64,000 nucleotides of DNA from Minisyncoccota bacterium. GTDB lineage: Bacteria; Patescibacteriota; Minisyncoccia; UBA6257; 2-01-FULL-56-20. The translations under genes were made by a program, and so were the position numbers. Below, one piece after another: positions 11,610 to 55,380 of the stretch (position 1 is the first letter of the stretch; every line of letters starts with the position of its first letter). The stretch covers positions 10,315 to 74,314 of the forward strand of contig JALHNY010000005.1 in the NCBI GenBank assembly GCA_022843285.1. The letters are read 5' to 3'. A model generated the notes under the pieces. It saw only the letters and a list, made by a program, of their open reading frames with translations. It was not told where the DNA came from and did no database searches.

Positions 11610-11618
11610 AACGAGAAA

Positions 11619-11645
11619 GGGCCCCGCAGTCGCCCGCGGGGCCCC
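11619..11645. terminator. GC-rich hairpin (GGGCCCCGC ... GCGGGGCCC) between convergent operons
   Basis: Perfect 9-bp stem. A T-rich tail follows only in the minus-strand reading. Confidence 0.45.
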
Positions 11646-11682: not shown

Positions 11683-11788
11683 TTAGCGCTTGCTGCGCTT
11701 GTTCTTCAGGCACTGGCCCTTGCGCTTTCCGCGCTTGACCACGCCGTGCTTGCAGTGACGCTTCTTCCTGCGGTGCATGATTTCCATG
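11683..11788 (-). CDS. 34-aa highly basic micro-protein (MEIMHRRKKRHCKHGVVKRGKRKGQCLKNKRSKR)
   Basis: Not in the ORF track, which omits ORFs under 60 aa. AAGGAGG RBS 7 nt upstream of the ATG; ends in a TAA stop. Confidence 0.6.
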
Positions 11789-11850
11789 TCGTCGTTCCTC
11801 CTTTTCTTTCAGAGTCGCTCAGTACGTGCAGCGTTGCGAGAGCGCGGACC

Positions 11851-11979
11851 TTAGCGCTTGCCCTTCAGGCACTTCTTCGCGTGCGCGCGGTAGCTGTGAG
11901 TCGACTTGTACTTCGCCGACTTCGCGTTCCACTCGCGGGCGCACTTCTTCATCTTCGAGCCCTGTTTCGCCATGGTCAT
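11851..11979 (-). CDS. 40-42-aa highly basic micro-protein (M(TM)AKQGSKMKKCAREWNAKSAKYKSTHSYRAHAKKCLKGKR)
   Basis: AAGGAG RBS. Its ATG overlaps the upstream stop (ATGA). Confidence 0.55.
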   Translation of the reverse strand: MTMAKQGSKMKKCAREWNAKSAKYKSTHSYRAHAKKCLKGKR

Positions 11980-12281
11980 TTCTCCTTCAGCTTGTCGTTC
12001 GCGAACCATCCGCCGGCGCCGCCCAGGACAGCAGCAGCGAGCAGCCACCCCCACAACGGGAGCGTGATGTTGAAGAGCGTGACCGGCGTCTGCAGCAGCT
12101 CGGTGGTGGTCGGTTGCGCGCTGGGCTGAACCGAGGAGCCCGTCGACCCGACACCCGAGAGCATCATCACCGCGCTGTCGTCGCCGAGCGCGCCGCCGCT
12201 CGCCTCGCCGAGGCCGGAGATGAACCGTCCCCCGGTGGGCGTGACGTTCAGCATGCCGAGCAGGTGCGCGTTGTTCGTCAT
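11976..12281 (-). CDS. small membrane protein (C-proximal TM helix)
   Basis: Hydrophobic segment LPLWGWLLAAAVLGGAGGWF. Confidence 0.5.
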   Translation of the reverse strand: MTNNAHLLGMLNVTPTGGRFISGLGEASGGALGDDSAVMMLSGVGSTGSSVQPSAQPTTTELLQTPVTLFNITLPLWGWLLAAAVLGGAGGWFANDKLKEK

Positions 12282-12287
12282 GAGCTC

Positions 12288-12728
12288 TTACCGGCGCAGG
12301 GCGACGACGAGGCCGAGGCCGAGGGCCGCAGCGAGGGCGAGACCGACCGGCACGGCGACGTTGGACCAACCGGCGGCCGAAGCGTTCGCCTCAGCGATGC
12401 GGGCCTGCGTCTGGAGCGCGGCGTAGTCGGTGGCCGCCTGCGCCTGGTCTCGAGCTGCGCCTCGACCGGTGACGGAGTCGACGATGCCCGTGACGCCGCC
12501 GGTGATGGAACCGACCGCGTCGGTGAACCAGTCGCCGAAGCCCCGGAGGCCTCCACCGCGAACGCCGCCGAAGGCAGCACCGCTGGTCGCGACCGCGAGG
12601 TCAGGGCGCTGCGTGCGGCGCAGGCCCATCGTGGGCCCCTTGGGCACGTACTGCGCCTGCGTCGCGGGCGAGAACATGCCGAGCGCGGCGGGGCTCATGT
12701 TCGGATTGGCGCAGTAGAGGTGAGCCAT
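12288..12728 (-). CDS. membrane-anchored Gly/Ala-rich protein (C-terminal TM helix)
   Basis: Hydrophobic C-terminus VAVPVGLALAAALGLGLVVAL. Confidence 0.5.
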   Translation of the reverse strand: MAHLYCANPNMSPAALGMFSPATQAQYVPKGPTMGLRRTQRPDLAVATSGAAFGGVRGGGLRGFGDWFTDAVGSITGGVTGIVDSVTGRGAARDQAQAATDYAALQTQARIAEANASAAGWSNVAVPVGLALAAALGLGLVVALRR

Positions 12729-12771
12729 AGTGCCTTGACCGTAGCAGGTGGACGTGCGGGGACCTACAAAC

Positions 12772-13167
12772 TCAGCGCTTGCCGAGCTTCGAGACGCCCC
12801 ACACCGCGAAGCCGAGCGCGCCGAGCGCGAACAAACCGCCGCCCACCATCTTCAGGGTGCGGCTGCGCTCGCGCGCCGCCTCCTGCGCGGCAATCGTCGC
12901 GACGGAGTTCTGGAACCCGGTGGCCGCGGTGCCGCCCTGGTTGAAGATGTTCTTCACGAAGTCGAGAGCACCGCCGCCGAGAAGAGATTCCATACCGCCG
13001 CCTTTGGCGTCTGCACCGTACGCCGGTTGAGTTCGAATCGTCGTGCTCGTGCCGCCACGGATGCTCGCGGGGTCGATGCCTTGAGACTTCGCCTGCGCGT
13101 CGAGGAGCGCGAGGTCCTCGTCGAGACCTCGAAGACCTGCAGAGGCGATGAACACGGGCGCGCTCAC
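12772..13167 (-). CDS. membrane-anchored Gly-rich protein (C-terminal TM helix)
   Basis: Hydrophobic C-terminus LFALGALGFAVWGV. Confidence 0.5.
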   Translation of the reverse strand: MSAPVFIASAGLRGLDEDLALLDAQAKSQGIDPASIRGGTSTTIRTQPAYGADAKGGGMESLLGGGALDFVKNIFNQGGTAATGFQNSVATIAAQEAARERSRTLKMVGGGLFALGALGFAVWGVSKLGKR

Positions 13168-13781
13168 GTGACCACCTCTTCACCTTCGGCTGCATCGAAG
13201 TCGGGCGTACGCCGGCACTTCTTCTTGGTGACTTCGCCCTCGATGGGCTTGGCGTGCGCGCCGACGTCGCCGAAGACGTCGTCGCCGAGAATGACGGCGT
13301 CGCCGTTGGCCATCTTCCGGCCTCGACCACGACCTCGAGCGCGTCGAGGTTCAGCGTCCCCCTCCGAGGTCCCGCTGAACGCCGACGTCTCGTTTTTCAG
13401 AACGAAGAAGGCCACGCCCATCAGCGCGGCGACCCCTAAGCCGATGAAGAGCGGCTGCTTCCACAGCGGCTGCTGCACGAGCCCGGTGTTGGTAGCACCG
13501 GTCACGCTCACGGGACCCGGCGCCTTCACCGGCGCGCGGTGACCCGAGCCCGCGAGCTTCCGCAGCTGCTCGAGCACGTTCGCGTCGACGCTGCCCACCG
13601 ACTGCTGCAGCGCGCGCGTCACTTCTGCGGAGGTGTTGGACCCGAAGATGCCGTCGACCTTGAGCGGCCCGTAGCCCATCGCGTTGAGCAGCGTCTGCGC
13701 TTCAGCGACCGTCGGAGAAGACACGTTCCCCACCGGCGCCACGCGCTGACCTGCGAACTGATGGACGTACGCGGGGTGCAT
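13164..13781 (-). CDS. peptidoglycan-binding-domain protein with a TM helix
   Basis: AEAQTLLNAMGYGPLKVDGIFGSNTSAEVTRALQQ matches the PG_binding_1 fold pattern. Central TM helix LFIGLGVAALMGVAFFV. Confidence 0.55.
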   Translation of the reverse strand: MHPAYVHQFAGQRVAPVGNVSSPTVAEAQTLLNAMGYGPLKVDGIFGSNTSAEVTRALQQSVGSVDANVLEQLRKLAGSGHRAPVKAPGPVSVTGATNTGLVQQPLWKQPLFIGLGVAALMGVAFFVLKNETSAFSGTSEGDAEPRRARGRGRGRKMANGDAVILGDDVFGDVGAHAKPIEGEVTKKKCRRTPDFDAAEGEEVVT

Positions 13782-13787
13782 GGTGCG

Positions 13788-14714
13788 TCACTTCTTCCGG
13801 GTGAGGAAGAACACGCCGACGCCGATGGCCACGACGGCAGCAGCGCCGCCGATGTAGAGCCCGGTGTTCGACGCCGGCGCTGCAGCGGCGCCGCGCGGCC
13901 CCATCGTATTGTTGATGAGCGGCCCGAGCTGGTCGGCGAGCGAGTTGGTGCCGGTGGGCGTGTTGGGCGCGATGTACTGGTTCTCGGCCTGAATGCCGCC
14001 ACCGGGCGTGGTGTTCGACGTCGACGTGCTCGAGGGCACGCGGAACGCCATGATGTTCTCCATCTGCTCCTGAATCGCTTCGAACGCGGCGACTCGCACC
14101 TGCTCGTCAGCTGACGTGCGGCGACCGGCGAAGAGGACGTTCCAGGGGCGCTTCGTACCGGCGTCGGCCTGCGCGATGGCGCCCTTGATGGCGTTGCGGA
14201 CCCCGGTCATGAAGTTGCGCGTCGCCGTGTCGCGCGACGAAGCGGCCTTGAGCTGGTTCCACTTCAGCCCGACCTGCGCGGCGAAGCTCGAATCAGCGGG
14301 CGTGTACGGCACGGGCCCGTAGTTCGGGTCCTTGATGCCGAGCACGTCGTGCTGCTTGTTGACGGCGGTCACCCACGCGCGGTTGGTGCCGAAGAAGTCG
14401 GCCGCGCTCCACGCTTCGTCGAACTCGAACTCGTCGAAGAGCGGGGTGGCGCCGAAGCTCCCGGCGCCGGCCGAGCTGAGCGCACCGAAGCCGCCCGCTC
14501 CTGCGAGACCGCGTGACGTCGGACCGACGAGGCCGTACGCGCTCGGCTGCACGAGCATGCCTCGAGCCTGCGAGGCGTTGCCGAAGAGCTTGCTGACCTG
14601 CGGCGCTTTGACGGGCACCTTCTGCTGCACACCGCGGGCGTTGGTGAGCAGCCGCTGGCCGAGCTGAGAAGAGCTCGGGGGCTTCGCACGAAACTGGTTG
14701 AAGAGGTTGAGCAC
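13788..14714 (-). CDS. membrane-anchored Gly/Ala/Pro-rich protein (C-terminal TM helix)
   Basis: C-terminus YIGGAAAVVAIGVGVFFLTRKK. Confidence 0.55.
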   Translation of the reverse strand: MLNLFNQFRAKPPSSSQLGQRLLTNARGVQQKVPVKAPQVSKLFGNASQARGMLVQPSAYGLVGPTSRGLAGAGGFGALSSAGAGSFGATPLFDEFEFDEAWSAADFFGTNRAWVTAVNKQHDVLGIKDPNYGPVPYTPADSSFAAQVGLKWNQLKAASSRDTATRNFMTGVRNAIKGAIAQADAGTKRPWNVLFAGRRTSADEQVRVAAFEAIQEQMENIMAFRVPSSTSTSNTTPGGGIQAENQYIAPNTPTGTNSLADQLGPLINNTMGPRGAAAAPASNTGLYIGGAAAVVAIGVGVFFLTRKK

Positions 14715-14725
14715 GGCGGAGCCTT

Positions 14726-15565
14726 TCAGCGGAAGACGAGGTAGCCGACGACCGCCACCAGGGCGACACCGCCGATGATGTACGGGAGCTTCGAGCTGCT
14801 CGGCGCGACGCCGGTGGTGATGAAGCTGTCGGGAGCAAGGCGACCCGGCGTCGAGGTCGTGGTGCCCTCACCCGTCGTGTAGTCGGGGACGAAGTCCTGA
14901 CGGCTCGGAGGCGGCGCGGAAGGCAGGCTGGGCAGGCCAGCGCCCGTCGCGCTCGAACCCGTCGCTGCGGTCTTCATGTCCTTCGCGGCGTCGATGATGC
15001 CCTGGTCGCGCGAGTTCATCATCGCCTCACGCGCCTTGTCCGCCGTGAGCCCGCCGCTCGAGGGCGGCGTCAGCGTCAGCGGCTTGTTGCCGAACGACGG
15101 CGGCTGCAGAGGCGTGATGGGCACGAAGCCCGTCTTCGGCGTGTTGATGATGCCGGGGTTGCTCGGCGTGATGTTCGAACCCGGCAGGTTGAGCGCGGGA
15201 GGCGCCGGGTTGAAGAGCGAGTTGCTCTTCGTGTTCAGCTTGTCGAACGAAGGCGTGAGCTGCTTCGTCGCCGCTGCGTTGCGCAGGTCGATGGGCGCGC
15301 TGATGCCGGAGCCCACGTTCGGCTGCTGGAGCGTCCCACCGACGAGGTTCTTCATCGTGCTGGGAGGTGCGAGCGTGTTGGCCTTCATCAGCGGCGTGAA
15401 GTTGGTGGTGACGCCGTTGGTCTTCGTGTCGAAGCCCTGCGCGCTGGGCAGGAGCGCCATGTTCTTGTTGAGCCCCGTGGTGGGCGGGTTGACGAAGCCC
15501 AGGGTGCCCAGCCCCGCGAGCATGCGCTGCTTGTGGCCCATGCGGCTGTGCTGGAACGGGGTCAT
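14726..15565 (-). CDS. membrane-anchored Pro/Thr/Asn-rich protein (C-terminal TM helix)
   Basis: C-terminus YIIGGVALVAVVGYLVFR. The body of the protein is low-complexity. Confidence 0.55.
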   Translation of the reverse strand: MTPFQHSRMGHKQRMLAGLGTLGFVNPPTTGLNKNMALLPSAQGFDTKTNGVTTNFTPLMKANTLAPPSTMKNLVGGTLQQPNVGSGISAPIDLRNAAATKQLTPSFDKLNTKSNSLFNPAPPALNLPGSNITPSNPGIINTPKTGFVPITPLQPPSFGNKPLTLTPPSSGGLTADKAREAMMNSRDQGIIDAAKDMKTAATGSSATGAGLPSLPSAPPPSRQDFVPDYTTGEGTTTSTPGRLAPDSFITTGVAPSSSKLPYIIGGVALVAVVGYLVFR

Positions 15566-15576
15566 CGTCTTCTCCT

Positions 15577-15756
15577 CAACCGCAGGAACACGCTCCTGCT
15601 GCGAACTGCTTCACCTGCACCATGCCACGGTCGGCCTCGCGTGCTCCGAGCCACCGACCATCAGGAAGACGCCACCATTCGATGCCGTCCTTCTTCACCA
15701 CGAAGGTCGCGCGCTGCTGTGCGACCTGAACTGAGAACTGCGCTCGAGTCATCATG
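15577..15756 (-). CDS. small hypothetical protein (about 59 aa)
   Basis: ATG-initiated ORF found by hand translation; it is not in the ORF track. It fills the gap between two genes. Confidence 0.3.
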
Positions 15757-15770
15757 CTCGAGGTTCTACA

Positions 15771-16256
15771 TCACCGCGTGGGGATGAGCCCACCGGGGTT
15801 GGGCTGAAACGCCCACGCGGGGATGGTGCCCTTCACGGCACCGTCGGCGTCGATGTACGCCCCGAGACCCTTCACGCCGCCGTCGTCGCCGTACGCGACC
15901 GCCGTCTTCGCGCCCACGCTGAAGCCGACTGCCGTGGCGACCGCTCCGAGCAGCGCCGCGATGGCGCCCTTCTTCGTCTTGCCGGTCGCGAGCAGGTAGA
16001 CGCCGGTGAGCAGCGTTCCTGCCCCGCCGGCCACGAGCCCCGAACCGAGGTTGAGCCCGAAGCGGAAGTTGTTCGCGCCGAGCGGGTTGGCCGCGTCCCA
16101 CGCTGCGTTGGTGTTCGCGACCCACTGCTCGCGCGTCACCTGCGTCGGCGTCTTCGCCTGCACCTCGAGCGGGTAGAACTTCCCGTCCGGGCCGAGGCTG
16201 GAGCCCAGGCCACCGAAGCCGGTACCACTGTTGAGGACGAAGGTCGGTGCGCTCAT
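15771..16256 (-). CDS. Gly-rich membrane protein
   Basis: TM segment GAIAALLGAVATAVGF. Confidence 0.5.
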   Translation of the reverse strand: MSAPTFVLNSGTGFGGLGSSLGPDGKFYPLEVQAKTPTQVTREQWVANTNAAWDAANPLGANNFRFGLNLGSGLVAGGAGTLLTGVYLLATGKTKKGAIAALLGAVATAVGFSVGAKTAVAYGDDGGVKGLGAYIDADGAVKGTIPAWAFQPNPGGLIPTR

Positions 16257-16263
16257 GGGTGGA

Positions 16264-16731
16264 TTACTTCTTCAGTGCGACGAAGCCGATGCCGAGAACG
16301 ACGATGCCGCCGAGGACCCAGCCGCCGATAGGAATGCCGAGCGGACCGGGCGAGGGCGCGTTGATGACCGTCGTCGCGGCCGGCGGCGTGCTGTTCGAGA
16401 AGAACGAGCCCGTGGCGCGGCTGAGGCGGTCGAAGAAGTCGGCGACCGTCTGTCCGCCCTGGGTGACGTCACGCGCACCTTCGACGGGCGTGCTGCCGCC
16501 GATGGTGGGCTGCGGCTGCTGCTTCGCCCACGTCGACCAGTCATCGGCCGAGGGCGCGTTGCCGAAGCCGCTGACGCGCATGCCGCCGAACGCTGCGCCT
16601 GCGGCGCCAGCTGCCGCACCGGCCGCGAGACCGGAGCGCGTGGCGTTGGCGCGCGCGAAGTACGACAGCTTCGAGGGGTCGCTCACGATGAGCGGGCGAC
16701 GGGGGGCCCAACCGGGGACGTTGTTGCTCAT
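16264..16731 (-). CDS. membrane-anchored Gly/Ala-rich protein (C-terminal TM helix)
   Basis: C-terminus GGWVLGGIVVLGIGFVALKK. Confidence 0.5.
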   Translation of the reverse strand: MSNNVPGWAPRRPLIVSDPSKLSYFARANATRSGLAAGAAAGAAGAAFGGMRVSGFGNAPSADDWSTWAKQQPQPTIGGSTPVEGARDVTQGGQTVADFFDRLSRATGSFFSNSTPPAATTVINAPSPGPLGIPIGGWVLGGIVVLGIGFVALKK

Positions 16732-16744
16732 GGTGACGGCTCCT

Positions 16745-17602
16745 TCACTTCCAGAAGTAGTAGCCCGTCGCGAGTGCGACAGGGAGCAGCCACCAGGGGA
16801 GCCAGGTGCGTGCTGCGGAGTTGACAGACTTCGTCTGCTGAAGCTGAAGGTCCTGCATCAGCGCCGGAATTTCGGCAGCCACCGACGCGCTGCCCGGTTC
16901 CTGGCTCACGATGGGCTCGACGGCGCGCGCGGCTTCAGCGAAGCCCGAGAGCACCCCTTGAGTCTGGTACTGCAGGTACGAGTCCCACCAGTTGTTGGGG
17001 TCGAGGTTGCCCAAGCCGCTGAGCGCGCCTGAAGCACCGGCAGCGACGCGAACATCTTCGGGGAAGAAGAGGTTCGTCCGGCCGACCCACGAGGGCGGTC
17101 GCCACTGGTCCTTCATGTTGAGGGTCACCTGCTCGTTGCCCTTCGCCGAAGCGCGGAGCAGCGGAGGGAGCGCGGGCGCCTTGAAGTTCTTCTCGGCCGT
17201 CTCCATCGCTTGCAGCATGACGTTGCGGCGCAGGGTGGCGAACTTCGCCGTCTCGACGAGAATCTTCTTCTCCGAGGCGGAGTTCGCCTTCGCAGCGGCC
17301 TGCTGCGCGGTGATGGCCTTGTCGCCTTCGCGTGACGCCATCAGCGCGTAGGCCGCCATCATGCGGCCCTTCTCGCTCGAGACGCGGTGGTCGTACGCGT
17401 CCTGGGCGAGCGCGGCGCGGCGCATCTTCATCGCGTCCGTCTGGTCCTTGCCCGCTGCGACGTTCGCTTCCCACGCCTTCGCGAGGTACGCGCCCGACAC
17501 GGTCGCGCCTTCGTCCATGCGCTTGAGCGCACGGAGCGCGAGCTGGGACGCCTGCGTGTCCTTCGAGCCCTTCAAGAACTGAATCGCCGCTGACGTGCTC
17601 AC
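16745..17602 (-). CDS. alpha-helical protein with a C-terminal TM anchor
   Basis: GTG start overlapping the upstream stop (GTGA). The Arg/His-rich N-terminal extension in the ORF track looks like shadow sequence. Confidence 0.5.
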   Translation of the reverse strand: MSTSAAIQFLKGSKDTQASQLALRALKRMDEGATVSGAYLAKAWEANVAAGKDQTDAMKMRRAALAQDAYDHRVSSEKGRMMAAYALMASREGDKAITAQQAAAKANSASEKKILVETAKFATLRRNVMLQAMETAEKNFKAPALPPLLRASAKGNEQVTLNMKDQWRPPSWVGRTNLFFPEDVRVAAGASGALSGLGNLDPNNWWDSYLQYQTQGVLSGFAEAARAVEPIVSQEPGSASVAAEIPALMQDLQLQQTKSVNSAARTWLPWWLLPVALATGYYFWK

Positions 17603-18315
17603 TTGAGCACCTTCGCGATGGTGGCGACGTTGCCGGTGATGACCGCGAGCGCGATGACGCCCGCGAGGCCCGCGCCGGCGATGAGGCCGACCTTCACCCA
17701 CGGGTTGAGCTCATCGGGCTTCTGCCCTTCCGGCGGAGTGAGCAGCGCGGTGCCCCCTGGAGGAGGGGTTCCGTTGCGCGTCATGTCGGCGCGCAGCGCG
17801 GTGAGGGTCTCGGTGAGGATGCCCGTGTCGCGGTCGCAGCCGCCGGTGCCCGGCAGGTACGTGATGCCCGCGTCCATCTCCTGGAAGACGAAACGCGCGC
17901 GCGTCACGACGTCGCTGGAGTAGTTCACCTTGCCCAGCAGCCACTCCAGCTCCGCGAGCATCGTGCGGACCGGTGCGCAGAGCGCAGGGAAGGAGCGCGA
18001 CTTCGGGCCGTCGACGTCGCCGAGGTAGCCGAGGCCGCTCAGCGCCGCCTGAGGCACGCCTTCATCGCAGGGCGGTGCGCCGGGGATTCCGCACGTTCGA
18101 GGCAGGAGCCCCGACGAGAAGAACCGCGCCGAGGCGCGAGCGTTGGCGTCGTTGGTGACGGCCTTGAGCCCTTGCGGGCCCATGCCGAGGTACGGGCGGT
18201 CGTTGACCTGCGCCCACTTGAGCGTGGTCGAGGGACGCCACGCCGCGGGCGCTGCCCGGCTCGGAATGAGCGAGCCCAGGGAACCGAACGAACCTGAGGT
18301 GACGACCGCGCGCAT
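17599..18315 (-). CDS. Cys-containing protein with a C-terminal TM anchor
   Basis: 238 aa. C-terminus VGLIAGAGLAGVIALAVITG. Confidence 0.55.
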   Translation of the reverse strand: MRAVVTSGSFGSLGSLIPSRAAPAAWRPSTTLKWAQVNDRPYLGMGPQGLKAVTNDANARASARFFSSGLLPRTCGIPGAPPCDEGVPQAALSGLGYLGDVDGPKSRSFPALCAPVRTMLAELEWLLGKVNYSSDVVTRARFVFQEMDAGITYLPGTGGCDRDTGILTETLTALRADMTRNGTPPPGGTALLTPPEGQKPDELNPWVKVGLIAGAGLAGVIALAVITGNVATIAKVLK

Positions 18316-18329
18316 TCACGACCTCGCTC

Positions 18330-18875
18330 TTACGTCCGCTTCGGGATGAGAATGCCCTCGAGCAGGAGGCCGTAGTCGGCGTCGTTGCCCGCGATGGCCG
18401 CTGCGACGCTCTGCAGCGTGAAGCTGGCGCGCAGCTGGTGCGTGGCGGGGAAGAGCAGCGGCGCCTGCACCGGGAACTGCAGCTTGCTGCCCATCGGCGA
18501 GCTGATGGCGCCGAGCACGACCGCGCGCGCGTCGAAGACGGCGAGGTTGCGGTCCTTGTTCTCGAGCGAGGCGATGCAGTTCGAGAGGCGGGCGACCTGC
18601 AGGTCCGACGGTGAGAGGCTCAGGTTGGCGTTGAGCACGGGCTCGGTCGCGAGGTTCGTCGACCGGTAGTACCCCGAGATGCCGTAGACGACCAAGTCCT
18701 GGTCGGAGGGCACGTTGTAGTTGTCGGTGGCCTGCGGAGTCGTCTGCCCGAGCCGCACGCGCAGGTCGATGCCCACACCACGCAGCTGTGCGGGCGAGAG
18801 CCGGAGCAGCTCGCGGAGGTAGTCCGCGACGCCGGCGCCGGAAGGAGACTGGGGAAGGCCGGGAGGACAGTTCAC
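18330..18875 (-). CDS. beta-rich structural protein; second candidate coat protein
   Basis: GTG with a GGAGCA RBS was preferred over the longer ATG form. Adjacent to the capsid-like gene. Confidence 0.45.
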   Translation of the reverse strand: MNCPPGLPQSPSGAGVADYLRELLRLSPAQLRGVGIDLRVRLGQTTPQATDNYNVPSDQDLVVYGISGYYRSTNLATEPVLNANLSLSPSDLQVARLSNCIASLENKDRNLAVFDARAVVLGAISSPMGSKLQFPVQAPLLFPATHQLRASFTLQSVAAAIAGNDADYGLLLEGILIPKRT

Positions 18876-19088
18876 GGTGGTGTGCTCCGAAAAAGGGAAG
18901 GTCGGTGCCGTCCGACCAGCGGCAGGGTCTGGTGTGTCCCCGCCCGCCGAAGGGTCCCGTGTGCAGACGGGAGAGCCCAAGGCGTTGCACTGCTATGTGG
19001 TCGGGAGGTTCTGCACCACGTTCCCGACTTCCGAGGAGACAGCCCGGCCGCCTTGGCGAGGCTGAACAGATTGGTTCGCTGGCGCGGC

Positions 19089-19733
19089 TTACTTGCCGAG
19101 CGGGCTCTTGATGACGCCGCGCAGGAAGAGCGTCACGAGCACGCCCGTGGTGGTCGTCGGCGCGGTGTAGCCGCCGGCAATCCAGGCCGCGTCGTTGAAG
19201 CGCATCTTGCAGCTGATGTCATCGTTATCCCGGAGCTGCTGGGGAACGAAGAGCGTCGGGGCTGCGGCGACCGAGGGCACGCCCACCGAGGCGGCGGCCT
19301 GACCGGCACCGGCGACCTCGTTCGAGAAGCCCGAGAGGCCGTACCCGCTGGGGTACTTGATGACCGGGCCGTTCGTGATGATGCGGCGGTTGAACCGGAG
19401 GTCCAGCGACGCGTTGCCCGCCAGGCGGCGGAAGTCGGTGAACGCGGTCAGCACGTTGCCGATGGCCTCGCGCGGGTGGAGACCGACGCGGAACACGGCG
19501 ACCTCGTCACCAGCGGCGATGCGGCCCGACTGGGGGAGGTTGCAGTGCTGGTCGTTCTTGTTCTGGATGTCGCGGAAGAAGATGAACTCGGTGCCGTTGG
19601 CGATGGCGCCAGCCGGGATGAAGACCGAGTCGTACACGTCGTCTTCGCGCAGCTCGACCTGCTGAATGGCCTTGCCGAGGGCGGGGATATACAACTCACC
19701 GGGCTTGTTCGTGGGGACGGCAATCTGGTTCAT
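19089..19733 (-). CDS. beta-rich structural protein; candidate major capsid protein
   Basis: 214 aa. Its N-terminus, VP(T/S)....PG(E/Q)LYIP, is shared with the paralog at 39741. The function is inferred only from context and composition. Confidence 0.45.
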   Translation of the reverse strand: MNQIAVPTNKPGELYIPALGKAIQQVELREDDVYDSVFIPAGAIANGTEFIFFRDIQNKNDQHCNLPQSGRIAAGDEVAVFRVGLHPREAIGNVLTAFTDFRRLAGNASLDLRFNRRIITNGPVIKYPSGYGLSGFSNEVAGAGQAAASVGVPSVAAAPTLFVPQQLRDNDDISCKMRFNDAAWIAGGYTAPTTTTGVLVTLFLRGVIKSPLGK

Positions 19734-19849
19734 GATGTTCTTTCGGGTACAGCGCGTTGACGACGAGGGACGACGTTCGACTGCATTTCGCGAGCGGTGT
19801 GCTGCTCATCAGGACCTCGAAACATTTCTGCTCGAGGTGCTGACGAGCA

Positions 19850-19874
19850 GGAGCTCTCTTTCGAGGAGAGCTCC
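19850..19874 (-). other. perfect 9-bp stem-loop (GGAGCTCTC-N7-GAGAGCTCC) in the intergenic leader
   Basis: Read directly. No T-run follows it on the minus strand. Confidence 0.4.
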
Positions 19875-19891
19875 CGTTCGGGTTCGGCTCG

Positions 19892-20479
19892 TTACATCAG
19901 CGCGCCAGCGAAGCTGCCGGGCGACTCGATGGCCACCGTGGCGCCGTTGAAGCCGCCCGGCTGTTCGACGGCGACCGTTGCGCCGTTGAACATCGAAGCG
20001 CCGCTCAGGTCGGGGGTGCCGACGCCGAAGAGGAGCGACTGGTCGGCCGCGCCGAAGCCCGCGAGCCCGCGACCGAGCGGGTTGACGCCGGACATCTGCG
20101 AGACGCCCGTGGCCGCTTCGGCCGCGTTCACCGCGTCGTTCGCGGCGGCTGCGGTGCGGTTCACCATCGGGGCGAGCACGTCCTGGGCGACCGAGCCGAC
20201 CGCCGAAGCGACCATGCCGTCACCGACCGAGCCGCCGAGGTACTTGCGGCTCGCCCCGCCGAGCGCGAGGCCCGCGAGGATGCGGAGGCCGTACTCGGCC
20301 GCGCCCTTCTGCGCGAACATCGGGCTCATCCGGAGCAGCCACGACTGCAGCATGCCGTAGACGAACGGGAAGGCGGCGGCACCAGCTCCGAGCTTGAGCG
20401 CCTCCATGAGGGACGACTTGGAGAGCCCCAGCATCGACGTGAGGCTCCCGAGGGACATGCGGTGAGTGGCGTTCTTCAT
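19892..20479 (-). CDS. Gly-rich hypothetical protein
   Basis: ATG (MKNATHRM...) with a GGAGAG RBS. First gene of the minus-strand structural operon. Confidence 0.5.
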   Translation of the reverse strand: MKNATHRMSLGSLTSMLGLSKSSLMEALKLGAGAAAFPFVYGMLQSWLLRMSPMFAQKGAAEYGLRILAGLALGGASRKYLGGSVGDGMVASAVGSVAQDVLAPMVNRTAAAANDAVNAAEAATGVSQMSGVNPLGRGLAGFGAADQSLLFGVGTPDLSGASMFNGATVAVEQPGGFNGATVAIESPGSFAGALM

Positions 20480-33870: not shown

Positions 33871-36171
33871 TTACGGTGCGCGCGCGGGGACCGTCGGCCG
33901 GGGTTCGTTCGAGATGAACTCGAGCACCTTGCCCGTGTCCTTCACTTCTTGAGTGAGAGGAATCGGCGGAGACGCGGGCGCCTCGATGATGTCGACGGTG
34001 GGCTCGATGGCTTCGACGGTGTTCGCGACCAGCTGCGGTGCGGGTTGCGGTGACGGTGCCGGCGCGGGAGGCGGTGCAGGGGGCTGTGCGACGGCCTGAG
34101 CGATGCTGCCGTCGAGCAGGACGACCGGCGGGGCTCCCGCCTTCCAGACGAGCGCGCCCCGAGCGTCGATGAGCCAGAGGCCCTTCGTCTGCGTGAGCGT
34201 CGCCGGAGGCGTTGCGACGCCGAACCGCTTGGCGAGCGCGACGAGCGCGTCGTCGACGAACTCCGGCGTGGCGTGCTGTCCGACGGTGTCGGCCGCGAGG
34301 AAGAACGCGGTGACGCGCGCCGGCGTGAGGAACTCGACGCCCTTCTCCGCCTGGTTGAGGCCTTCGAGCGCGGGCTGAAGCTTCGCCGAGTAGTACGGGT
34401 CGGCCGACGTGAACATCGTCTGCACGATGTCGAGGAAGCGCTCGACGCGAACCTCGTGCGTCTGGGCCACCTGCGCGGCGCGCACAGCCTCGAGCACTGC
34501 CGCCGGGGGAGGCGAGGGCGGTTTGTTCGGGTCACGTGCAGCCGGTGCGGCCGGAGCTGCGGGAGCGGTCCCTTGCGCGGCCGGAGCCTGAGCGCCCTGC
34601 TGCTGCGCCTTCTGCTTCTCGATGCCTCCGGCCAGCGCGTCACCGAGGGCCTGACCGAGCTTCGGGGTGATGATGTTCTGCAGCGCCGAGCCGATGCCCG
34701 CGCTCTCACCGCCACCACCGACCTGCGGAGCGAGCGCCTTCACCATCGTGCCGACCTTCTCGAACGTGGCGACAGCTTCTTCGAGCCCGCTCACGCGTCC
34801 CGCGGCGGGCGCGCCCTTGAGCGCAGCGACCTCGTGCACGAGCTGCGTGAGCAGCGTGTTCTGCTGACCGCCGCCCATCAGCTGCTGCAGCGTGACCATC
34901 TCCTTGAGCTGGTCGACGAAACTGGGCGGGTTGACGAGCTTTGCGAGCGCGATGTCGAGCAGCTTGCTCTCGGCGGCCGGCGGGGGCGGGGGCGGCATGG
35001 GCATGGGCGGCATGCTCCACATCGGAGGCGGTGCGGGCGGGCCGAAGTCGGGTGACGGCGAGTTCGGGCGGCGACCTTCAATCTTGTCGAGCCGCTCGAG
35101 GACCATCTTCAGGAGCTCACCGTCGTTCGACGCCTTCGGCGCCATCGACTTCTCCATCATCATGAGCATCATCAGCGACATCATGTCGCCGCCCGCGACC
35201 GCCTTCTGCTGCGCGGCCTGGAGGAGCGGGTTCGGGGGCTCGGCCTGCGTGGTGCTGGCCTTGAGCGTGTTCATCAGGTCGACCGCGCGGTGAATGGTCG
35301 AGAACGGGTCGTTGCTGCTCTGCGGCGGGTTTCGGGAGTGCACGGTGAACTCGTGCACGGGCGGCAGCTCGCGGTCGGTGCGCGGGTCGACCTTGTAGGC
35401 CTCGTACTTCGTCGTGCCCGACTCGTTGCCGTACTCGGGGTCGACGTACGCGGTGATGAACTCCTTCACCTTCATGTCGCCGAGGTCGTCGAGCGAGTAG
35501 TCGTTGACGAGCTCTCGCTGACCGTTCTCCAGGCGCACGAAGATGCGGAGCTTCTCCGGCGTGGGGAGGAGCGAGTCGAGCGTGCGACGCTGCGGTGCGG
35601 CAGGCTGAGCCTGCGTGCGACGTCGACGCGAGCTGCCGGGTGCGGGCGCCTGCACGTAGACGGTCTGCACCGGAATGGCCTGTCGACGCGGGCGCGGCTG
35701 CTGAACGACTTCCTCTTCCTCGGGGGGTAGCTCGTCGTCTTCGAACTGCTCATCGTTCTGCGGCTGCTGCGCCATGTCGTCCTCGGTGTCGTCTTCAGCG
35801 GGGGAATCTTCGTCGTCTTCGGTGTCGTCGGTGTCGGCTTCACTGTCAGCATCGCCGACTGGCTCTTCGACCTTCGGCTTCTTCTGCTTCTTCTTGCCGA
35901 TGGCGGGGAGCGGCTCGAGCGCCTCACCCTTGAGCGCCCGGGCGACGCGGTCGATGGCCAGCTCGGCGATGACGGCGAGCTTCTCGTCGGTGAAGAGCGG
36001 CGCGAGCAGGTGACGGCCCGTGTCGGTGCTGAACGACGCAGGGTCGGCCGCCGACTCTTCGAGGGTCTTCGTGAGTCGCTTGAGCGTCGACTTGAAGCGC
36101 GTGTACTGGTCAGCGGTGAGGCCGCCCTTCTTCAGGGCGAGGATTTCTTCGGTGACGGCTTCCCAGCTCAT
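33871..36171 (-). CDS. 766-aa low-complexity protein (acidic block, Pro-rich and Gln/Ala-rich regions)
   Basis: Long ORF with the runs DADSEADTDDTEDDEDSPAEDDTEDD and MPPMPMPPPPPPAA. Confidence 0.6.
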   Translation of the reverse strand: MSWEAVTEEILALKKGGLTADQYTRFKSTLKRLTKTLEESAADPASFSTDTGRHLLAPLFTDEKLAVIAELAIDRVARALKGEALEPLPAIGKKKQKKPKVEEPVGDADSEADTDDTEDDEDSPAEDDTEDDMAQQPQNDEQFEDDELPPEEEEVVQQPRPRRQAIPVQTVYVQAPAPGSSRRRRTQAQPAAPQRRTLDSLLPTPEKLRIFVRLENGQRELVNDYSLDDLGDMKVKEFITAYVDPEYGNESGTTKYEAYKVDPRTDRELPPVHEFTVHSRNPPQSSNDPFSTIHRAVDLMNTLKASTTQAEPPNPLLQAAQQKAVAGGDMMSLMMLMMMEKSMAPKASNDGELLKMVLERLDKIEGRRPNSPSPDFGPPAPPPMWSMPPMPMPPPPPPAAESKLLDIALAKLVNPPSFVDQLKEMVTLQQLMGGGQQNTLLTQLVHEVAALKGAPAAGRVSGLEEAVATFEKVGTMVKALAPQVGGGGESAGIGSALQNIITPKLGQALGDALAGGIEKQKAQQQGAQAPAAQGTAPAAPAAPAARDPNKPPSPPPAAVLEAVRAAQVAQTHEVRVERFLDIVQTMFTSADPYYSAKLQPALEGLNQAEKGVEFLTPARVTAFFLAADTVGQHATPEFVDDALVALAKRFGVATPPATLTQTKGLWLIDARGALVWKAGAPPVVLLDGSIAQAVAQPPAPPPAPAPSPQPAPQLVANTVEAIEPTVDIIEAPASPPIPLTQEVKDTGKVLEFISNEPRPTVPARAP

Positions 36172-38798: not shown

Positions 38799-39682
38799 GG
38801 CACACCTGCCTTTCGAATTTGAACAGCGACAGCCTCGGCGAGCTTCGCGTACGGCTTGCCGCGGTACTTCGCCCACTGGCCGACCTTCTTCGTGTCCCTG
38901 AAGAGCAGCGACTCGGGCGCCTTACCCCAGCACCGGTTGTAGTATTCGCAGGGCCCGTACTTGCCGACGCAGCCGGTGAGGTTGCGGGGGAAGGCGGCGT
39001 TCGCCGACGTTCGACGCTCCGCCACGCTCTTCAACCGCCGGTACACCTCGTTCCAGAAGTCGGCCACCATGTTGAAGAGCGCATCACTCTTCGCCGCTGT
39101 CAGCTCTACCTTGACAAGCTTCGTCTCGGCCAGCCCTGTCTTGCGTTGGATGTCGACGATGCCCTTGGTCGCGTTGACCGCGATGAGCTCACCCAAGATG
39201 CCGCCGTCGACGTTCCACTTCTGTTCGTCCCACTCCGAGAGCTGCATCGCGGTCTTGTAGTCGCGCGCGACGATGGAGCCGTCGGAGCGCTTCTCCACGC
39301 GGTCGGGCTTCGACGACATGGTGCCGCCGAAAATCTTCACGGTCTCTTCGACGACTTCGGCCTCGGGAATCGGCGGACCCTTCTCCATGCGAGCGCGGTA
39401 CAGCGACATCGCGGTCGCCGCCTGCTCGGGGAAGTCCTTGAGCACCTTCTCGGGCGAATCGCCCTCGAGCAACGCGTGATACGCGGAGCCGGTGAGCAGG
39501 TTCTCGTTCACCTGGGCCGGGTAGATGCCCAAGATGTAGCGGTACAGCCACTTCAGCCAGCACTGGTACGACGTGCTGATGAAGGTCCACCCGATGGGCG
39601 TTCCACCTTCACCGCCATCGACTCGACGCTTCGTCTTCGGTGCTGCGGGAGCGTTCTTGAAACCGTTCGGTCGAATCGGCAT
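38795..39682 (-). CDS. PD-(D/E)XK nuclease, Cas4/RecB-like with a C-terminal Cys cluster
   Basis: SKPDRVEK...SIVARDYKT gives the PD...DxK pattern. An N-terminal Cys plus CVGKYGPCEYYNRCW gives four Cys, as in Fe-S nucleases. Confidence 0.5.
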   Translation of the reverse strand: MPIRPNGFKNAPAAPKTKRRVDGGEGGTPIGWTFISTSYQCWLKWLYRYILGIYPAQVNENLLTGSAYHALLEGDSPEKVLKDFPEQAATAMSLYRARMEKGPPIPEAEVVEETVKIFGGTMSSKPDRVEKRSDGSIVARDYKTAMQLSEWDEQKWNVDGGILGELIAVNATKGIVDIQRKTGLAETKLVKVELTAAKSDALFNMVADFWNEVYRRLKSVAERRTSANAAFPRNLTGCVGKYGPCEYYNRCWGKAPESLLFRDTKKVGQWAKYRGKPYAKLAEAVAVQIRKAGVP

Positions 39683-39740
39683 GCCCCCGACGTACTGGCG
39701 GAATCGGGTTGACGTCAAGCGGAAGTTGACAGAGAACTCC

Positions 39741-40124
39741 ACCGTGCCCTCACGCATCGACCAACCCGGCCAGCTCTACATCCCTTCGCTGGGGAAGAGC
39801 TTCAAGGTGGTTCAGCTGGGACCGTTCTCCACGTCGATGCTCGTCGACCTGAAAGCGGAGTACCGAACCGGCACCGAGCAATCCGTGTTCGCCATCGCAG
39901 CTCAAGGGGCGAGTGGCGTGCAAGACACGGTTCAGCTGCGAGTCCCGACGGGGCTGCCGCTCGCAGAGTTCTCGGCACACCACCTCACGCAGCTGTGGCC
40001 GGAGCCACACCTGTTCCATGACCGCCTTCCCCTGCAGTTTCGAGAGGGCGACGTCATCGAAATCGAGAGCACTGTGCCACTCGTCGTCGTGCTCTTCGGC
40101 GTCTTCAAAGTCCCAGCGAGGTAA
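39741..40124 (+). CDS. capsid-like paralog
   Basis: VPSRIDQPGQLYIPSLGKSFKVVQL parallels the N-terminus of the 19089-19733 protein. The start (GTG at 39741 or ATG at 39681) is uncertain and would overlap the 5' end of the nuclease gene. Confidence 0.4.
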   Translation, partial: TVPSRIDQPGQLYIPSLGKSFKVVQLGPFSTSMLVDLKAEYRTGTEQSVFAIAAQGASGVQDTVQLRVPTGLPLAEFSAHHLTQLWPEPHLFHDRLPLQFREGDVIEIESTVPLVVVLFGVFKVPAR

Positions 40125-47933: not shown

Positions 47934-48764
47934 ATGCCGCTCATCCGCCTCGACAAGAAGCACGTCATCGACACCGACTCGAAGGAAGTGAAGGGTGACG
48001 GTCTGCGCGTGTGGATTGGCGGCGAGCCCGGCTCAGGGAAGTCGAACGCGTGCATGCTCATCGTCGCGCAGTACATCGAGCAGGGCGGGCAGGCGCTCAT
48101 CCTCGACGTGCACGGCGAGTACAGCGCGCTCTGGTCGCTCCGCCCCGGCGGAAAGCGGCGCATCGTCACCTACGGGTACGGCGACGGGCACCCCGTCGGC
48201 GAAGAGTCAGTCGAGCTGGTGATGAACCACCTGCGCGACGGCCACTCGGTGGTGCTCGACCTCTCACACTGGGCGCTCAAGCCTCGAGTGTGCGCCGCGT
48301 TCGTCGGCGACCTCATCCATGAGCTCTACGTGTACCGGCAACAGAACCCGAAGGGGAACACGCTCGTGCTCGTCGAAGAGGCTCACATCTTCGCGCCGCA
48401 GAACCAGTCGGTCGGCGACGCCGACAACATCCGCACCTTCGTGCTCGCGCTCACCGGTGGCCGGAAGTTCGGCCTGCACGTCGTGATGGCCTCGCAGCGC
48501 CAGTCGCTCGTCGACATCAACGTCGTGAGCCAGTGCAACGTGCGTCTGTTCTTGCGCGTCTCAGAGCAGAAGGACTGGCGCAACGTGGTGCGGAACTACC
48601 TGCCGCCGAAGTGCTCAGTCACCTGGTACAAAGACGACAAGACTGACCTCAACAAGTTCGATTCGGGCGACGCCATTCTGGTGTCGCGCTGGTTTCCGGT
48701 CGAACGTGTCCACCTGAACCAGTCGGCCATCCCGGTCGACGTCACCGTCGAGCGTGCATCGTGA
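47934..48764 (+). CDS. FtsK/HerA-superfamily ATPase, candidate genome-packaging ATPase
   Basis: Walker A GEPGSGKSN, the HerA-type LDVHGEY motif, and Walker B LVLVEEAH. About 277 aa. Confidence 0.65.
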   Translation: MPLIRLDKKHVIDTDSKEVKGDGLRVWIGGEPGSGKSNACMLIVAQYIEQGGQALILDVHGEYSALWSLRPGGKRRIVTYGYGDGHPVGEESVELVMNHLRDGHSVVLDLSHWALKPRVCAAFVGDLIHELYVYRQQNPKGNTLVLVEEAHIFAPQNQSVGDADNIRTFVLALTGGRKFGLHVVMASQRQSLVDINVVSQCNVRLFLRVSEQKDWRNVVRNYLPPKCSVTWYKDDKTDLNKFDSGDAILVSRWFPVERVHLNQSAIPVDVTVERAS

Positions 48765-49144
48765 ACTTCTCTGACCTTCCCCAGTGGCTGATGCTCGTCC
48801 CCTTCATCGTGCTCGCCGTCATCGCGGTGCTGCGTTACCTGCGCGAGCGCAACGCGCCCGAAGGCTCGCCGGATGAGTCGTGGGCCATCGCTGAATGGCG
48901 CAAGCACGGTGAGCGGGTGTTCGAGATGCACCGAGACACCGCCTCCATCTCGACGCGCATCACGTGGGCTCACCTCGCCGAGGCCGCCGAGCGAGACGCG
49001 AAGCGACGGGTCTGTGCGTGGTGCGGCACCGACGGGCACGGCTCCCACAAAGAGGGCATCACCAACGTGAAGGGCTCGACGCGCTCCTGGTACTGCAGCA
49101 ATCGCTGCTACCAACAGGGGCACACGTTCGAGGCCACGACGTGA
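48761..49144 (+). CDS. membrane-anchored Cys/His-rich protein
   Basis: GTG start overlapping the upstream stop (GTGA). N-terminal TM helix. CAWCGTDGHGSH...CSNRC. Confidence 0.5.
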   Translation: MNFSDLPQWLMLVPFIVLAVIAVLRYLRERNAPEGSPDESWAIAEWRKHGERVFEMHRDTASISTRITWAHLAEAAERDAKRRVCAWCGTDGHGSHKEGITNVKGSTRSWYCSNRCYQQGHTFEATT

Positions 49145-55272: not shown

Positions 55273-55356
55273 GGGCACGATGCTCTACTGGACTGAGCGC
55301 CGGGCTGTAAACCCGGTGAGCGCAAGCTCAAGCAGGTTCGATTCCTGCCGGGCCCA
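55273..55356 (+). tRNA. tRNA-Tyr (anticodon GTA), type II with a long variable arm, no encoded CCA
   Basis: Acceptor stem GGGCACG/CGGGCCC with one A-G mismatch. D-stem GCTC/GAGC. Anticodon stem CCGGG/CCCGG with loop CTGTAAA. Variable arm GAGC-GCAA-GCTC. T-arm GCAGG-TTCGATT-CCTGC. Confidence 0.55.
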
Positions 55357-55380
55357 CTCCTTCTACGAGGAGAAACACCA

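Follow-up and report, generated by a model that had tools for sequence, protein, structure and literature searches.

We found that a minus-strand operon within a 64,000-nucleotide stretch of contig JALHNY010000005.1 (assembly GCA_022843285.1; hereafter the window) most likely encodes the shell and inner-membrane proteins of an uncultured bacterial virus of roughly 85 kb that has no tail. Its two small coat proteins, which are predicted to be single jelly rolls, resemble those of the much smaller SH1, P23-77 and SSIP-1 viruses, and the genome would be by far the largest known for this virus architecture. We consider a new, large-genome lineage of single-jelly-roll membrane phages to be probable, although this rests on computation only, as no particle, proteome or lipid data exist.

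To determine whether the operon described in an earlier note is real, we called genes by third-position GC, which gave 13 co-directional genes between 20479 and 11976 (Table 1). The order is a multi-pass membrane protein, two adjacent beta-rich proteins, and then ten small proteins. The two adjacent proteins are real and conserved; note that the longer 216-aa ORF is not used by the homologues. The earlier note had claimed that about 13 small proteins each end in a hydrophobic transmembrane (TM) anchor, and this is somewhat overstated. In particular, of the ten genes downstream of the coat pair, six have a strictly C-terminal TM followed by basic residues, one has a near-C-terminal TM, two have a central TM, and one (16745-17604) has only a weakly hydrophobic C-terminus. 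Nevertheless, 9 of these 10 genes have a TM segment compared to 8 of 70 other window genes (Fisher p = 9e-7).

Table 1. Features of the operon and of other genes of the element (window positions)
Position	Strand	Product	Features	Proposed role	Supporting observations
19892..20479	-	195 aa	2-3 Gly/Ala-rich TM helices; conserved C-terminal GATVxxE-type tail; first gene of the operon	Major virion membrane protein linking membrane to shell, in the position of SH1 VP12	Called as 195 aa in near-identical contigs; no Pfam or PHROG hit
19089..19733	-	214 aa	Predicted single jelly roll; most conserved protein of the lineage	Major capsid protein	
18900..18917	-		Weak terminator-like hairpin followed by a T-rich tail, between the two predicted jelly-roll genes	May attenuate transcription after the most abundant protein	Consensus match only; no function shown
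18330..18875	-	181 aa	Predicted single jelly roll with an N-terminal helix	Second capsid protein or penton protein	
17599..18315	-	238 aa	C-terminal TM anchor	Candidate virion membrane protein	Conserved in the fetched loci L013 and L014
16745..17604	-	Roughly 286 aa	Ala-rich, probably helical; Trp-rich C-terminus		Start overlaps the stop of the upstream gene by 4 nt, as in related contigs
16264..16731	-	155 aa	Gly/Ala/Pro-rich; C-terminal TM anchor followed by KK		Anchor region conserved in 6 loci
15771..16256	-	161 aa	Gly/Ala-rich; central TM		
14726..15565	-	279 aa	Pro/Thr/Ser-rich; C-terminal TM anchor		
13788..14714	-	308 aa	C-terminal TM anchor followed by RKK		Homologue in L013
13164..13781	-	205 aa	N-terminal peptidoglycan-binding domain, central TM, charged C-terminus	Virion-associated wall-binding factor for entry or exit	PF01471 (PG_binding_1) E 8.2e-6, above the Pfam cut-off; matches to endolysin PHROG binding domains; relatives carry PG_binding in the same position
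12772..13167	-	131 aa	C-terminal TM anchor		
12288..12728	-	146 aa	Ala/Gly-rich; C-terminal TM anchor followed by RR		
11976..12281	-	101 aa	Near-C-terminal TM; last gene of the operon		Conserved in 5 loci
11618..11645	-		Strong terminator-like hairpin (12-bp stem, 10 G-C pairs) that closes the operon		
28990..29754	-	254 aa	Transglutaminase-core (papain-like) protein in the same late gene string	Virion-associated	PF01841 E 9e-11
33871..36171	-	766 aa	Conserved; near the head of the conserved late block (36725 down to 11976)	Unknown	Conserved and syntenic in L013 and in the fetched locus L178; no Pfam, PHROG or PDB hit
47934..48764	+	276 aa	HerA/FtsK-superfamily P-loop ATPase without a TM or HAS-barrel domain	Genome-packaging ATPase	Start supported by the alignment of homologues

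To test whether the two adjacent proteins might be coat proteins, we predicted their structures and searched the models against known structures. Both were confidently modelled as single jelly rolls, and among viral hits the top-ranked were capsid proteins of membrane-containing tailless viruses. The earlier note had read the combination of genes as the signature of PRD1-adenovirus-lineage phages; the predicted folds are instead of the SH1/P23-77/SSIP-1 type (kingdom Helvetiavirae, now realm Singelaviria, PMC12714852) and not the PRD1 double jelly roll. Note, however, that there is no sequence similarity to any known capsid protein, including gp44-46 of SSIP-1. The 214-aa protein shows conservation typical of a major capsid protein, with 105 cluster representatives at 33-92% identity, 103 metagenome loci, and 3 IMG/VR viral contigs of 80-102 kb. 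The second jelly-roll family was detected by sequence only in the closer relatives (27 loci).

The architecture of the module is also conserved. An iterative profile search (jackhmmer) within the fetched loci found the 195-aa membrane protein in 75 loci, always immediately upstream of the coat gene, and the second jelly roll and arrays of C-terminal-TM proteins lie downstream in relatives. SH1 has the same order, namely VP12 (membrane), VP7 and VP4, followed by structural and membrane proteins. Moreover, the transglutaminase-like protein, which was found within 1-10 kb upstream of the coat gene in 40 loci, has as its only match in 50,697 phage records SSIP-1 gp34 (E 5e-7), which is annotated as a structural protein of that tailless membrane phage.

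We next asked whether genes typical of tailed phages are present. No terminase, portal, HK97 capsid or tail family of Pfam or PHROGs matched any ORF scanned, a set that includes every ORF of 250 aa or more. Nor was any found in about 20 kb of flanking genome recovered from near-identical contigs (L004 and L010). The window plus these flanks accounts for about 84.3 of about 84.9 kb, and two independent assemblies gave contigs of 84,632 and 84,912 bp. Five of the flank proteins (186, 478, 635, 233 and 671 aa) start with signal-peptide-like segments and none of the flank proteins examined has a Walker A motif; they are therefore not terminase or portal. We entertained the idea that the element is a tailed phage whose terminase, portal, HK97 capsid and tail genes have diverged beyond sequence detection, in which case the jelly-roll proteins would be decoration, cement or receptor-binding proteins and the TM proteins would be lysis or superinfection-exclusion factors. 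In keeping with this idea, the 233-aa flank protein matches a PHROG called 'virion structural protein' and shares a short motif with a tail-fibre gene, and eight large ORFs remain without any assigned fold. However, TerL is normally the easiest phage gene to detect, the only packaging-type ATPase is HerA/FtsK-like, and an invariant membrane protein directly upstream of the most conserved protein is not a tailed-phage pattern. We thus regard this possibility as unlikely.

The ATPase at 47934-48764 was confirmed as HerA/FtsK-type (DUF87, E 2.5e-8; phrog_2666, E 5.5e-17). A tblastn search hit the SH1 and HCIV-1 packaging ATPases, and the family profile hit HerA at 1e-29 and the STIV2 packaging NTPase B204 at 6e-4. 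The earlier note considered it odd that the ATPase is far from the coat-protein genes. Although in this genome the ATPase is 28 kb away and on the other strand, this is less odd than it seemed, as a 50%-identical homologue sits on the same 77-kb contig as a 67%-identical coat protein, where it is co-directional and 14 kb upstream, at the head of the homologous late block. In SH1 the ATPase is also on the opposite strand. Note, however, that the family of the ATPase is closest to cellular and defence HerA, and that distant homologues occur in many viral contigs, several of which are probably tailed phages.

It remains possible, though we think it unlikely, that the capsid reading is right but the HerA-like ATPase is a replication, recombination or anti-defence helicase, and that the genome is enclosed during assembly, as proposed for SPV1 and for the ATPase-less Odin and FLiP groups. 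In the window the ATPase opens a plus-strand cluster that carries RNA ligase, AAA_24, UDG, a DinG-like helicase and PolA, and its best solved relatives are HerA helicases. In addition, the best structural match of both coat proteins is VP4 of SPV1 (Portogloboviridae), which appears to be a ~20-kb virus of an archaeal hyperthermophile with no identified packaging ATPase and with which there is no sequence similarity, and some groups of prokaryotic jelly-roll viruses lack a packaging ATPase (PMC5894146). Against this, the protein is short and lacks the N-terminal HAS-barrel of HerA, as viral packaging ATPases do, it matches the packaging ATPases noted above, and in a relative it heads the late structural string. 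Some homologues also seem to carry inteins (about 600 aa, two matched stretches).

We also considered whether the element might be non-viral, such as a conjugative or vesicle-mediated transfer element in which the ATPase and the many membrane proteins form a DNA-transfer apparatus and the jelly-roll proteins have some other role. The ATPase has weak P-loop matches to TrwB and TraG and to VirB4 and FtsK, there are many small membrane proteins, an integrase lies next to the window, and homologues are binned into MAGs. However, no relaxase, coupling protein with TM domains or VirB-like set was seen, and the ATPase is a short, soluble HerA-clade protein rather than a VirB4/TraG fragment. Phage-type replication genes, a tRNA, endolysin-type domains and the SSIP-1 structural-protein homologue point to a virus. 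Furthermore, relatives are in IMG/VR, many come from 0.1-um groundwater filtrates as autonomous contigs of 60-100 kb, and contig size is uniform at about 85 kb in two assemblies. We therefore consider a non-viral element to be very unlikely.

Taken together, these observations lead us to propose that the operon is the core virion module of a dsDNA bacteriophage whose particle is a tailless icosahedral shell of small single-jelly-roll proteins around an internal lipid membrane; the capsid role, the membrane, the packaging role of the ATPase and the morphology are all inferred. In this model, the long minus-strand transcription unit (about 36.7 kb down to 11.9 kb) is expressed late in infection, and the 195-aa multi-pass protein and the roughly ten tail-anchored or single-pass proteins insert into the host cytoplasmic membrane. 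The 214-aa protein would assemble on this virus-specific membrane patch, with the 181-aa protein acting as its capsomer partner or as the penton, and together they would enclose the patch as a vesicle. The ATPase would then pump the genome into the preformed membrane-lined procapsid through a unique vertex. The PG-binding membrane protein and the transglutaminase-like protein would travel in the virion and, with the M15/VanY peptidases seen in relatives, help cross the cell wall at entry or exit. A separate cluster just outside the window encodes large Ser/Thr/Gly-rich proteins, each with an N-terminal signal or anchor sequence, that probably supply the vertex spikes.

Among known viruses, members of the Halopanivirales (SH1, HHIV-2, HCIV-1, SNJ1, and Thermus phages P23-77 and IN93) likewise encode two small single-jelly-roll proteins side by side, preceded by a small membrane-protein gene and followed by membrane and structural genes, as in SH1, and there are weak but direct matches between the ATPase and those of SH1 and HCIV-1. 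They differ in that their genomes are 16-31 kb, their coat proteins share no sequence similarity with those described here, and the element studied here has an ATPase that is distant from the coat genes and closest to HerA proper and far more membrane proteins, mostly with C-terminal anchors. Replication here uses PolA, a DinG-like helicase, SNF2, a primase and an RNA ligase. Of the accessory genes listed in the earlier note, PolA, the DinG-like helicase, SNF2, an intein (in a GP88-family protein) and the RNA ligase were confirmed, but we could not locate the sigma factor.

SSIP-1 shares, in addition to the transglutaminase-like protein, a comparable late-gene layout, with three structural proteins of 210-241 aa (gp44-46) followed by small proteins with C-terminal TMs, as well as a large genome for this morphotype and an integrase. 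At 43.8 kb, SSIP-1 shows that known bacterial examples are not limited to the 10-20 kb stated in the earlier note, although the genome described here is about twice that size. No similarity was detectable between gp44-46 and the 214- or 181-aa families, similarity of the ATPase to gp40 is marginal (hhalign probability 80%), and the host and habitat differ (a halophilic Bacteroidota host as opposed to high-GC sequences from groundwater and sediment). Tectiviridae, Corticoviridae and other prokaryotic double-jelly-roll viruses (PRD1, PM2, Bam35, Toil) differ in that the coat candidates here are single jelly rolls, the genomes of prokaryotic double-jelly-roll viruses are about 7-18 kb (PMC5894146), and replication here uses PolA rather than a protein-primed PolB.

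Because the window has a G+C content of 65%, mechanical ORF lists are full of spurious frames, and we therefore filtered the reading frames by third-position G+C. This left a clean string of 13 minus-strand genes that is closed by a strong terminator-like hairpin. Gene starts were corrected using near-identical contigs and homologues. In particular, the first gene encodes a protein of 195 aa rather than 237 aa, the second beta-rich protein is 181 aa rather than 216 aa, and the ATPase starts at 47934; the last two agree exactly with the coordinates in the earlier note. Of the ten genes downstream of the two beta-rich proteins, nine encode a hydrophobic segment of TM length (six strictly at the C-terminus followed by Arg/Lys, one near the C-terminus and two centrally), compared with 8 of 70 other genes in the window (Fisher p = 9e-7). 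One of the ten carries PG_binding_1 (E 8e-6), and none of the others has any Pfam or PHROG match. Thus, the description in the earlier note is correct, except that its claim of about 13 proteins each ending in a TM anchor overcounts. (Note that the sigma factor reported in the earlier note was not located in the ORFs that we scanned.)

Coordinates of the features described in this section (window positions unless a locus is named; L004 and L010 are fetched loci that extend beyond the right and left ends of the window, respectively, and L175, L177 and L178 are loci of relatives)
Coordinates	Strand	Feature
11976-20479	-	String of 13 genes
11645-11618	-	Strong terminator-like hairpin
15576-15755	-	59-aa ORF in the gap between two membrane-protein genes
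18330-18875	-	181-aa predicted single jelly-roll protein
19892-20479	-	195-aa protein, first gene of the string
24783-27182	-	799-aa GP88-family protein (PF17338) interrupted by an intein with a LAGLIDADG homing endonuclease
28990-29754	-	Transglutaminase-core protein
29754-31580		608-aa GNAT plus RadC/JAB protein
39573-40124	+	ORF with a C-terminal TM (39741-40124 in the earlier note)
47934-48764	+	276-aa HerA/FtsK-superfamily ATPase
48761-49144	+	127-aa protein with an N-terminal TM and a Cys/His-rich C-terminus
55273-55357	+	tRNA-Tyr (GTA anticodon)
L010 11733-12641		Tyrosine integrase (PF00589), about 150 bp to 1 kb left of window position 1
L004 19243-22313 and L010 15444-20363		Cluster of large Ser/Thr/Gly/Ala-rich proteins, just outside both window ends
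L175 5205-5795, L177 5591-6226, L178 19616-20206		VanY or Peptidase_M15 cell-wall peptidase
L178 974-3655		SNF2 helicase with faint Hom_end and LAGLIDADG hits

To determine whether the two adjacent beta-rich proteins might be coat proteins, we collected their homologues and predicted their structures. The 214-aa protein has 105 cluster representatives at 33-92% identity, none of which has a Pfam domain or carries an informative name, and the 181-aa protein has 28. AlphaFold2 with these alignments gave confident models of single jelly rolls for both the 214-aa protein (pLDDT 88.4, pTM 0.83) and the 181-aa protein (pLDDT 82.8, pTM 0.74). Note that the scores of their structural matches are what unrelated jelly rolls often give each other, and they establish the fold, not a family; that the two proteins are the major capsid proteins is inferred from conservation and context. 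Foldseek against BFVD was not informative, as it gave only weak, non-specific jelly-roll hits with low TM-scores, mostly to CRESS-virus capsids. At the level of sequence, profiles of the two families searched against all PDB chains, including 3ZMN, 3ZMO, 6H9C and 6H82, gave no hit to any capsid protein at E up to 10, and thus no homology to VP4/VP7 or VP16/VP17 of the Helvetiavirae (Halopanivirales, realm Singelaviria) was detected. Moreover, there was no PHROG hit, tblastn of the 214-aa protein and megablast of the operon gave no match in 50,697 phage records, and alignment of the two family profiles with hhalign found no similarity between them. The 181-aa protein may be either a capsomer partner, as in Helvetiavirae, or a penton; its high scores against pentameric nucleoplasmin-type barrels, and its poorer conservation, would fit a penton. 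A third candidate in the earlier note (39741-40124) has a C-terminal TM and no PHROG hit; the ORF overlaps the 5' end of the minus-strand PD-(D/E)XK nuclease gene, and it is unclear whether it is a real gene.

We next asked whether the genome encodes a tailed-phage apparatus. The window carries PolA, a DinG-like helicase, SNF2, a DUF3987 primase, AAA_24, UDG, a PD-(D/E)XK nuclease, an RNA ligase, a RadC/GNAT protein, a methyltransferase, a tRNA-Tyr embedded in the plus-strand replication cluster, and a GP88-family protein split by a LAGLIDADG intein. Every ORF of 250 aa or more, and most of those of 140 aa or more, were scanned against Pfam and/or PHROGs, and no terminase, portal, HK97 capsid, tail tube, tape-measure or baseplate family appeared. 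PDB sequence searches of the large unknown ORFs (766, 582, 478 and 671 aa) found nothing. We entertained the idea that the GP88/intein protein might be a hidden terminase, but the weak terminase-PHROG hit lies at the extein/intein junction, and the exteins match the GP88 family with no P-loop. (The intein is inserted after '...RSICQS' and the extein resumes at 'CYAEGG'; the homologue in the relative L013 appears to lack the intein.) Using exact-protein look-ups we recovered 8.9 kb beyond the right end of the window (L004) and 8.8 kb beyond the left end (L010). Counting the two genes that run off those loci, the window plus flanks account for about 84.3 kb, and the same coat protein sits on contigs of 84,912 and 84,632 bp from independent assemblies. 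So essentially the whole genome has been seen.

The flanks encode an integrase followed by thioredoxin-domain and response-regulator-domain genes, together with a second methyltransferase and an exonuclease. The element may be temperate, although no att site or integrated copy was found in the sequence at hand, which did not include the full 84.9-kb contig. The flanks also encode a cluster of large Ser/Thr/Gly/Ala-rich proteins of 186, 478, 635, 735, 233 and 671 aa, the two parts of which would be adjacent to each other if the genome is circular, followed by three small coiled-coil or N-terminal-TM proteins. All of the large proteins except the 735-aa protein, whose N-terminus lies beyond the fetched locus, begin with a signal-peptide-like hydrophobic segment, and none has a Walker A motif. 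They are unlikely to be terminase or portal. The 233-aa protein matches phrog_10330 ('virion structural protein', E 4e-13) and shares a short motif with a tail-fibre gene. We interpret these proteins as candidate spike or host-recognition proteins, although N-terminal signal sequences are unusual for virion proteins that assemble in the cytoplasm. While these tests for terminase, portal, HK97 capsid and tail proteins were made at the level of sequence only, we consider it improbable that the element is a tailed phage with undetectable hallmark genes.

The coat family occurs in 3 IMG/VR contigs of 80-102 kb (at 32-36% identity), in 2 MAG-binned contigs, in 103 metagenome contigs, many of them from 0.1-um groundwater filtrates and freshwater sediments, and in long contigs of 61-91 kb in the protein collection; the contigs are abundant in Hainich-type groundwater 0.1-um fractions. 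The two MAG assignments (Myxococcales, Salinibacterium) and one Patescibacteria label disagree with one another and probably reflect binning. Synteny with the window is conserved in relatives at 54-70% coat identity, the order being 766-aa protein, RadC or M15/VanY peptidase, transglutaminase-like protein, GP88, 195-aa protein, coat protein, second jelly roll, TM-protein array and PG-binding protein. Of note, the relatives L175, L177 and L178 carry a VanY or Peptidase_M15 peptidase upstream of the transglutaminase-like gene, whereas the window has the GNAT plus RadC/JAB protein at the corresponding place. An iterative search within the fetched loci found the 195-aa protein in 75 loci, always immediately upstream of the coat gene, the transglutaminase-like protein in 40 loci, and the 181-aa family in only 27 loci. 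One distant relative has two tandem paralogues of the 214-aa type instead, and the gene after the coat gene in the distant relative L007 matches neither jelly-roll family. The 195-aa protein has two or three Gly/Ala-rich TM helices and a conserved C-terminal tail. Arrays of C-terminally anchored proteins follow the coat genes in relatives too, although in the most distant ones they are partly replaced by very large C-terminally anchored proteins, one of which has PG-binding domains.

The 276-aa protein is a soluble P-loop ATPase of the HerA/FtsK superfamily, with matches to DUF87 (E 2.5e-8) and phrog_2666 (E 5.5e-17) and weak TrwB and TraG P-loop matches. In the phage collection it hits the packaging ATPases of SH1 and HCIV-1 (E 2e-4 to 6e-4), among only six records. 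A full scan of 1.84 billion representatives found 16 close relatives of 268-301 aa. Some close homologues (proteins P0138, P0139 and P0143) are about 600-650 aa and match in two separated stretches, which suggests intein insertions; taken with the faint hits in the SNF2 helicase of L178, inteins seem frequent in this lineage. A family profile is closest to HerA (E 1e-29) and also reaches STIV2 packaging NTPase B204 (6e-4), FtsK, TrwB and VirB4. We consider it very unlikely, however, that the element is a non-viral transfer element.

To test whether the ATPase is linked to the coat gene, we examined its position in relatives. It does not lie within 10 kb of the coat gene in any of 94 loci, a single-sequence scan of the loci found nothing, and a profile scan returned 80 other viral contigs, none of which was one of the three IMG/VR coat-bearing contigs. 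However, a 50%-identical homologue lies on the same 77,369-bp contig as a 67%-identical coat protein, where it is on the same strand, 14 kb upstream, at the head of the homologous late block. A second ATPase/coat pair shares a longest contig of 61,628 bp. So the ATPase appears to belong to the lineage, and its separation in this genome, where it is 28 kb away on the other strand, looks like a rearrangement. In SH1 the ATPase is also on the opposite strand from the coat genes, but only 2.4 kb away. Distant HerA-like homologues occur in many other viral contigs, so a non-packaging role cannot be excluded; we nevertheless regard the combination of a correct capsid reading with a non-packaging ATPase as unlikely. 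The gene that overlaps the ATPase stop codon by 4 nt might encode a membrane partner of the ATPase, but it is not conserved next to the ATPase in L178.

The order of membrane protein, jelly roll, jelly roll, then membrane and structural proteins is that of SH1, in which VP12 (TM) is followed by VP7, VP4, and so on to VP10, which has a C-terminal TM. [quoted passage not shown] SSIP-1 is a 43.8-kb tailless internal-membrane phage whose late region has three structural proteins of 210-241 aa (gp44-46) followed by small proteins with C-terminal TMs. We could not demonstrate homology between these and the coat proteins of the window; hhalign, hmmsearch and a profile built with the single extra gp46 homologue that we could find gave nothing significant. 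Similarity of the ATPase to gp40 of SSIP-1 is marginal. With respect to the Tectiviridae (PRD1-type, Bamfordvirae), both coat candidates are single barrels of 181-214 aa, and the other ORFs, checked by sequence only, gave no MCP family hit. Moreover, the polymerase is of family A (PF00476, E 4e-46) rather than a protein-primed family-B enzyme, and the genome is about 85 kb, compared with the small (~15 kb) linear genome of that group.

Taken together, these findings suggest, with reasonable though not full confidence, that the 13-gene string is the capsid-and-membrane core of a tailless, internal-membrane icosahedral phage of about 85 kb, the internal membrane and the morphology being inferred from sequence. 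It is embedded in a longer late block (about 36.7 to 11.9 kb) that also carries the GP88-family gene, the transglutaminase-like protein and large conserved unknowns; the HerA/FtsK ATPase is the probable packaging motor, and the signal-peptide proteins outside the window are the probable spikes. On this reading the element works like a Helvetiavirae/SSIP-1-type virus, but it lacks detectable sequence homology of its coat proteins to those of the Helvetiavirae and differs in genome size, replication module and ATPase linkage.

There is a substantial chance, which we put at about even, that these sequences represent a previously undescribed lineage of high rank (family to class level, possibly outside Singelaviria) of membrane-containing, tailless icosahedral bacteriophages, widespread in groundwater and sediments, with coat proteins that are single jelly rolls without sequence relatives, a full phage-type replication apparatus, and genomes of 60-100 kb, two to five times larger than any known prokaryotic virus of this architecture. 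Tailless, membrane-containing jelly-roll viruses of bacteria and archaea are thought to be confined to small genomes: prokaryotic double-jelly-roll viruses have genomes of about 7-18 kb (PMC5894146), Halopanivirales have genomes of 16-31 kb, and the outlier SSIP-1 has a genome of 44 kb. Genome expansion in jelly-roll viruses is otherwise known only in eukaryotic giant viruses. We found no description of bacterial single-jelly-roll viruses with genomes of this size in the incomplete body of literature searched, which is absence of evidence and not proof of novelty. A widespread bacterial lineage of about 85 kb (up to about 100 kb) with this architecture would show that the capsid-plus-membrane design scales in prokaryotes, with the implication that such capsids scaled up to large genomes in bacteria independently of the giant viruses of eukaryotes. 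It would also add a deep new branch, or an independent origin, to the single-jelly-roll viruses (Helvetiavirae) that ICTV recently moved into their own realm, Singelaviria (PMC12714852). Moreover, it would expose a blind spot in virome annotation, as every coat-family member found carries either no name or 'hypothetical protein', some are binned into bacterial MAGs, and marker-based classifiers would probably call these contigs tailed phages on the basis of their replication genes.

Of note, ORFs of 58-60 aa occur in several relatives (L013, L019, L025, L032 and L175) at the position equivalent to that of the 59-aa ORF of the window, which has no TM, so this ORF may be a real small gene.
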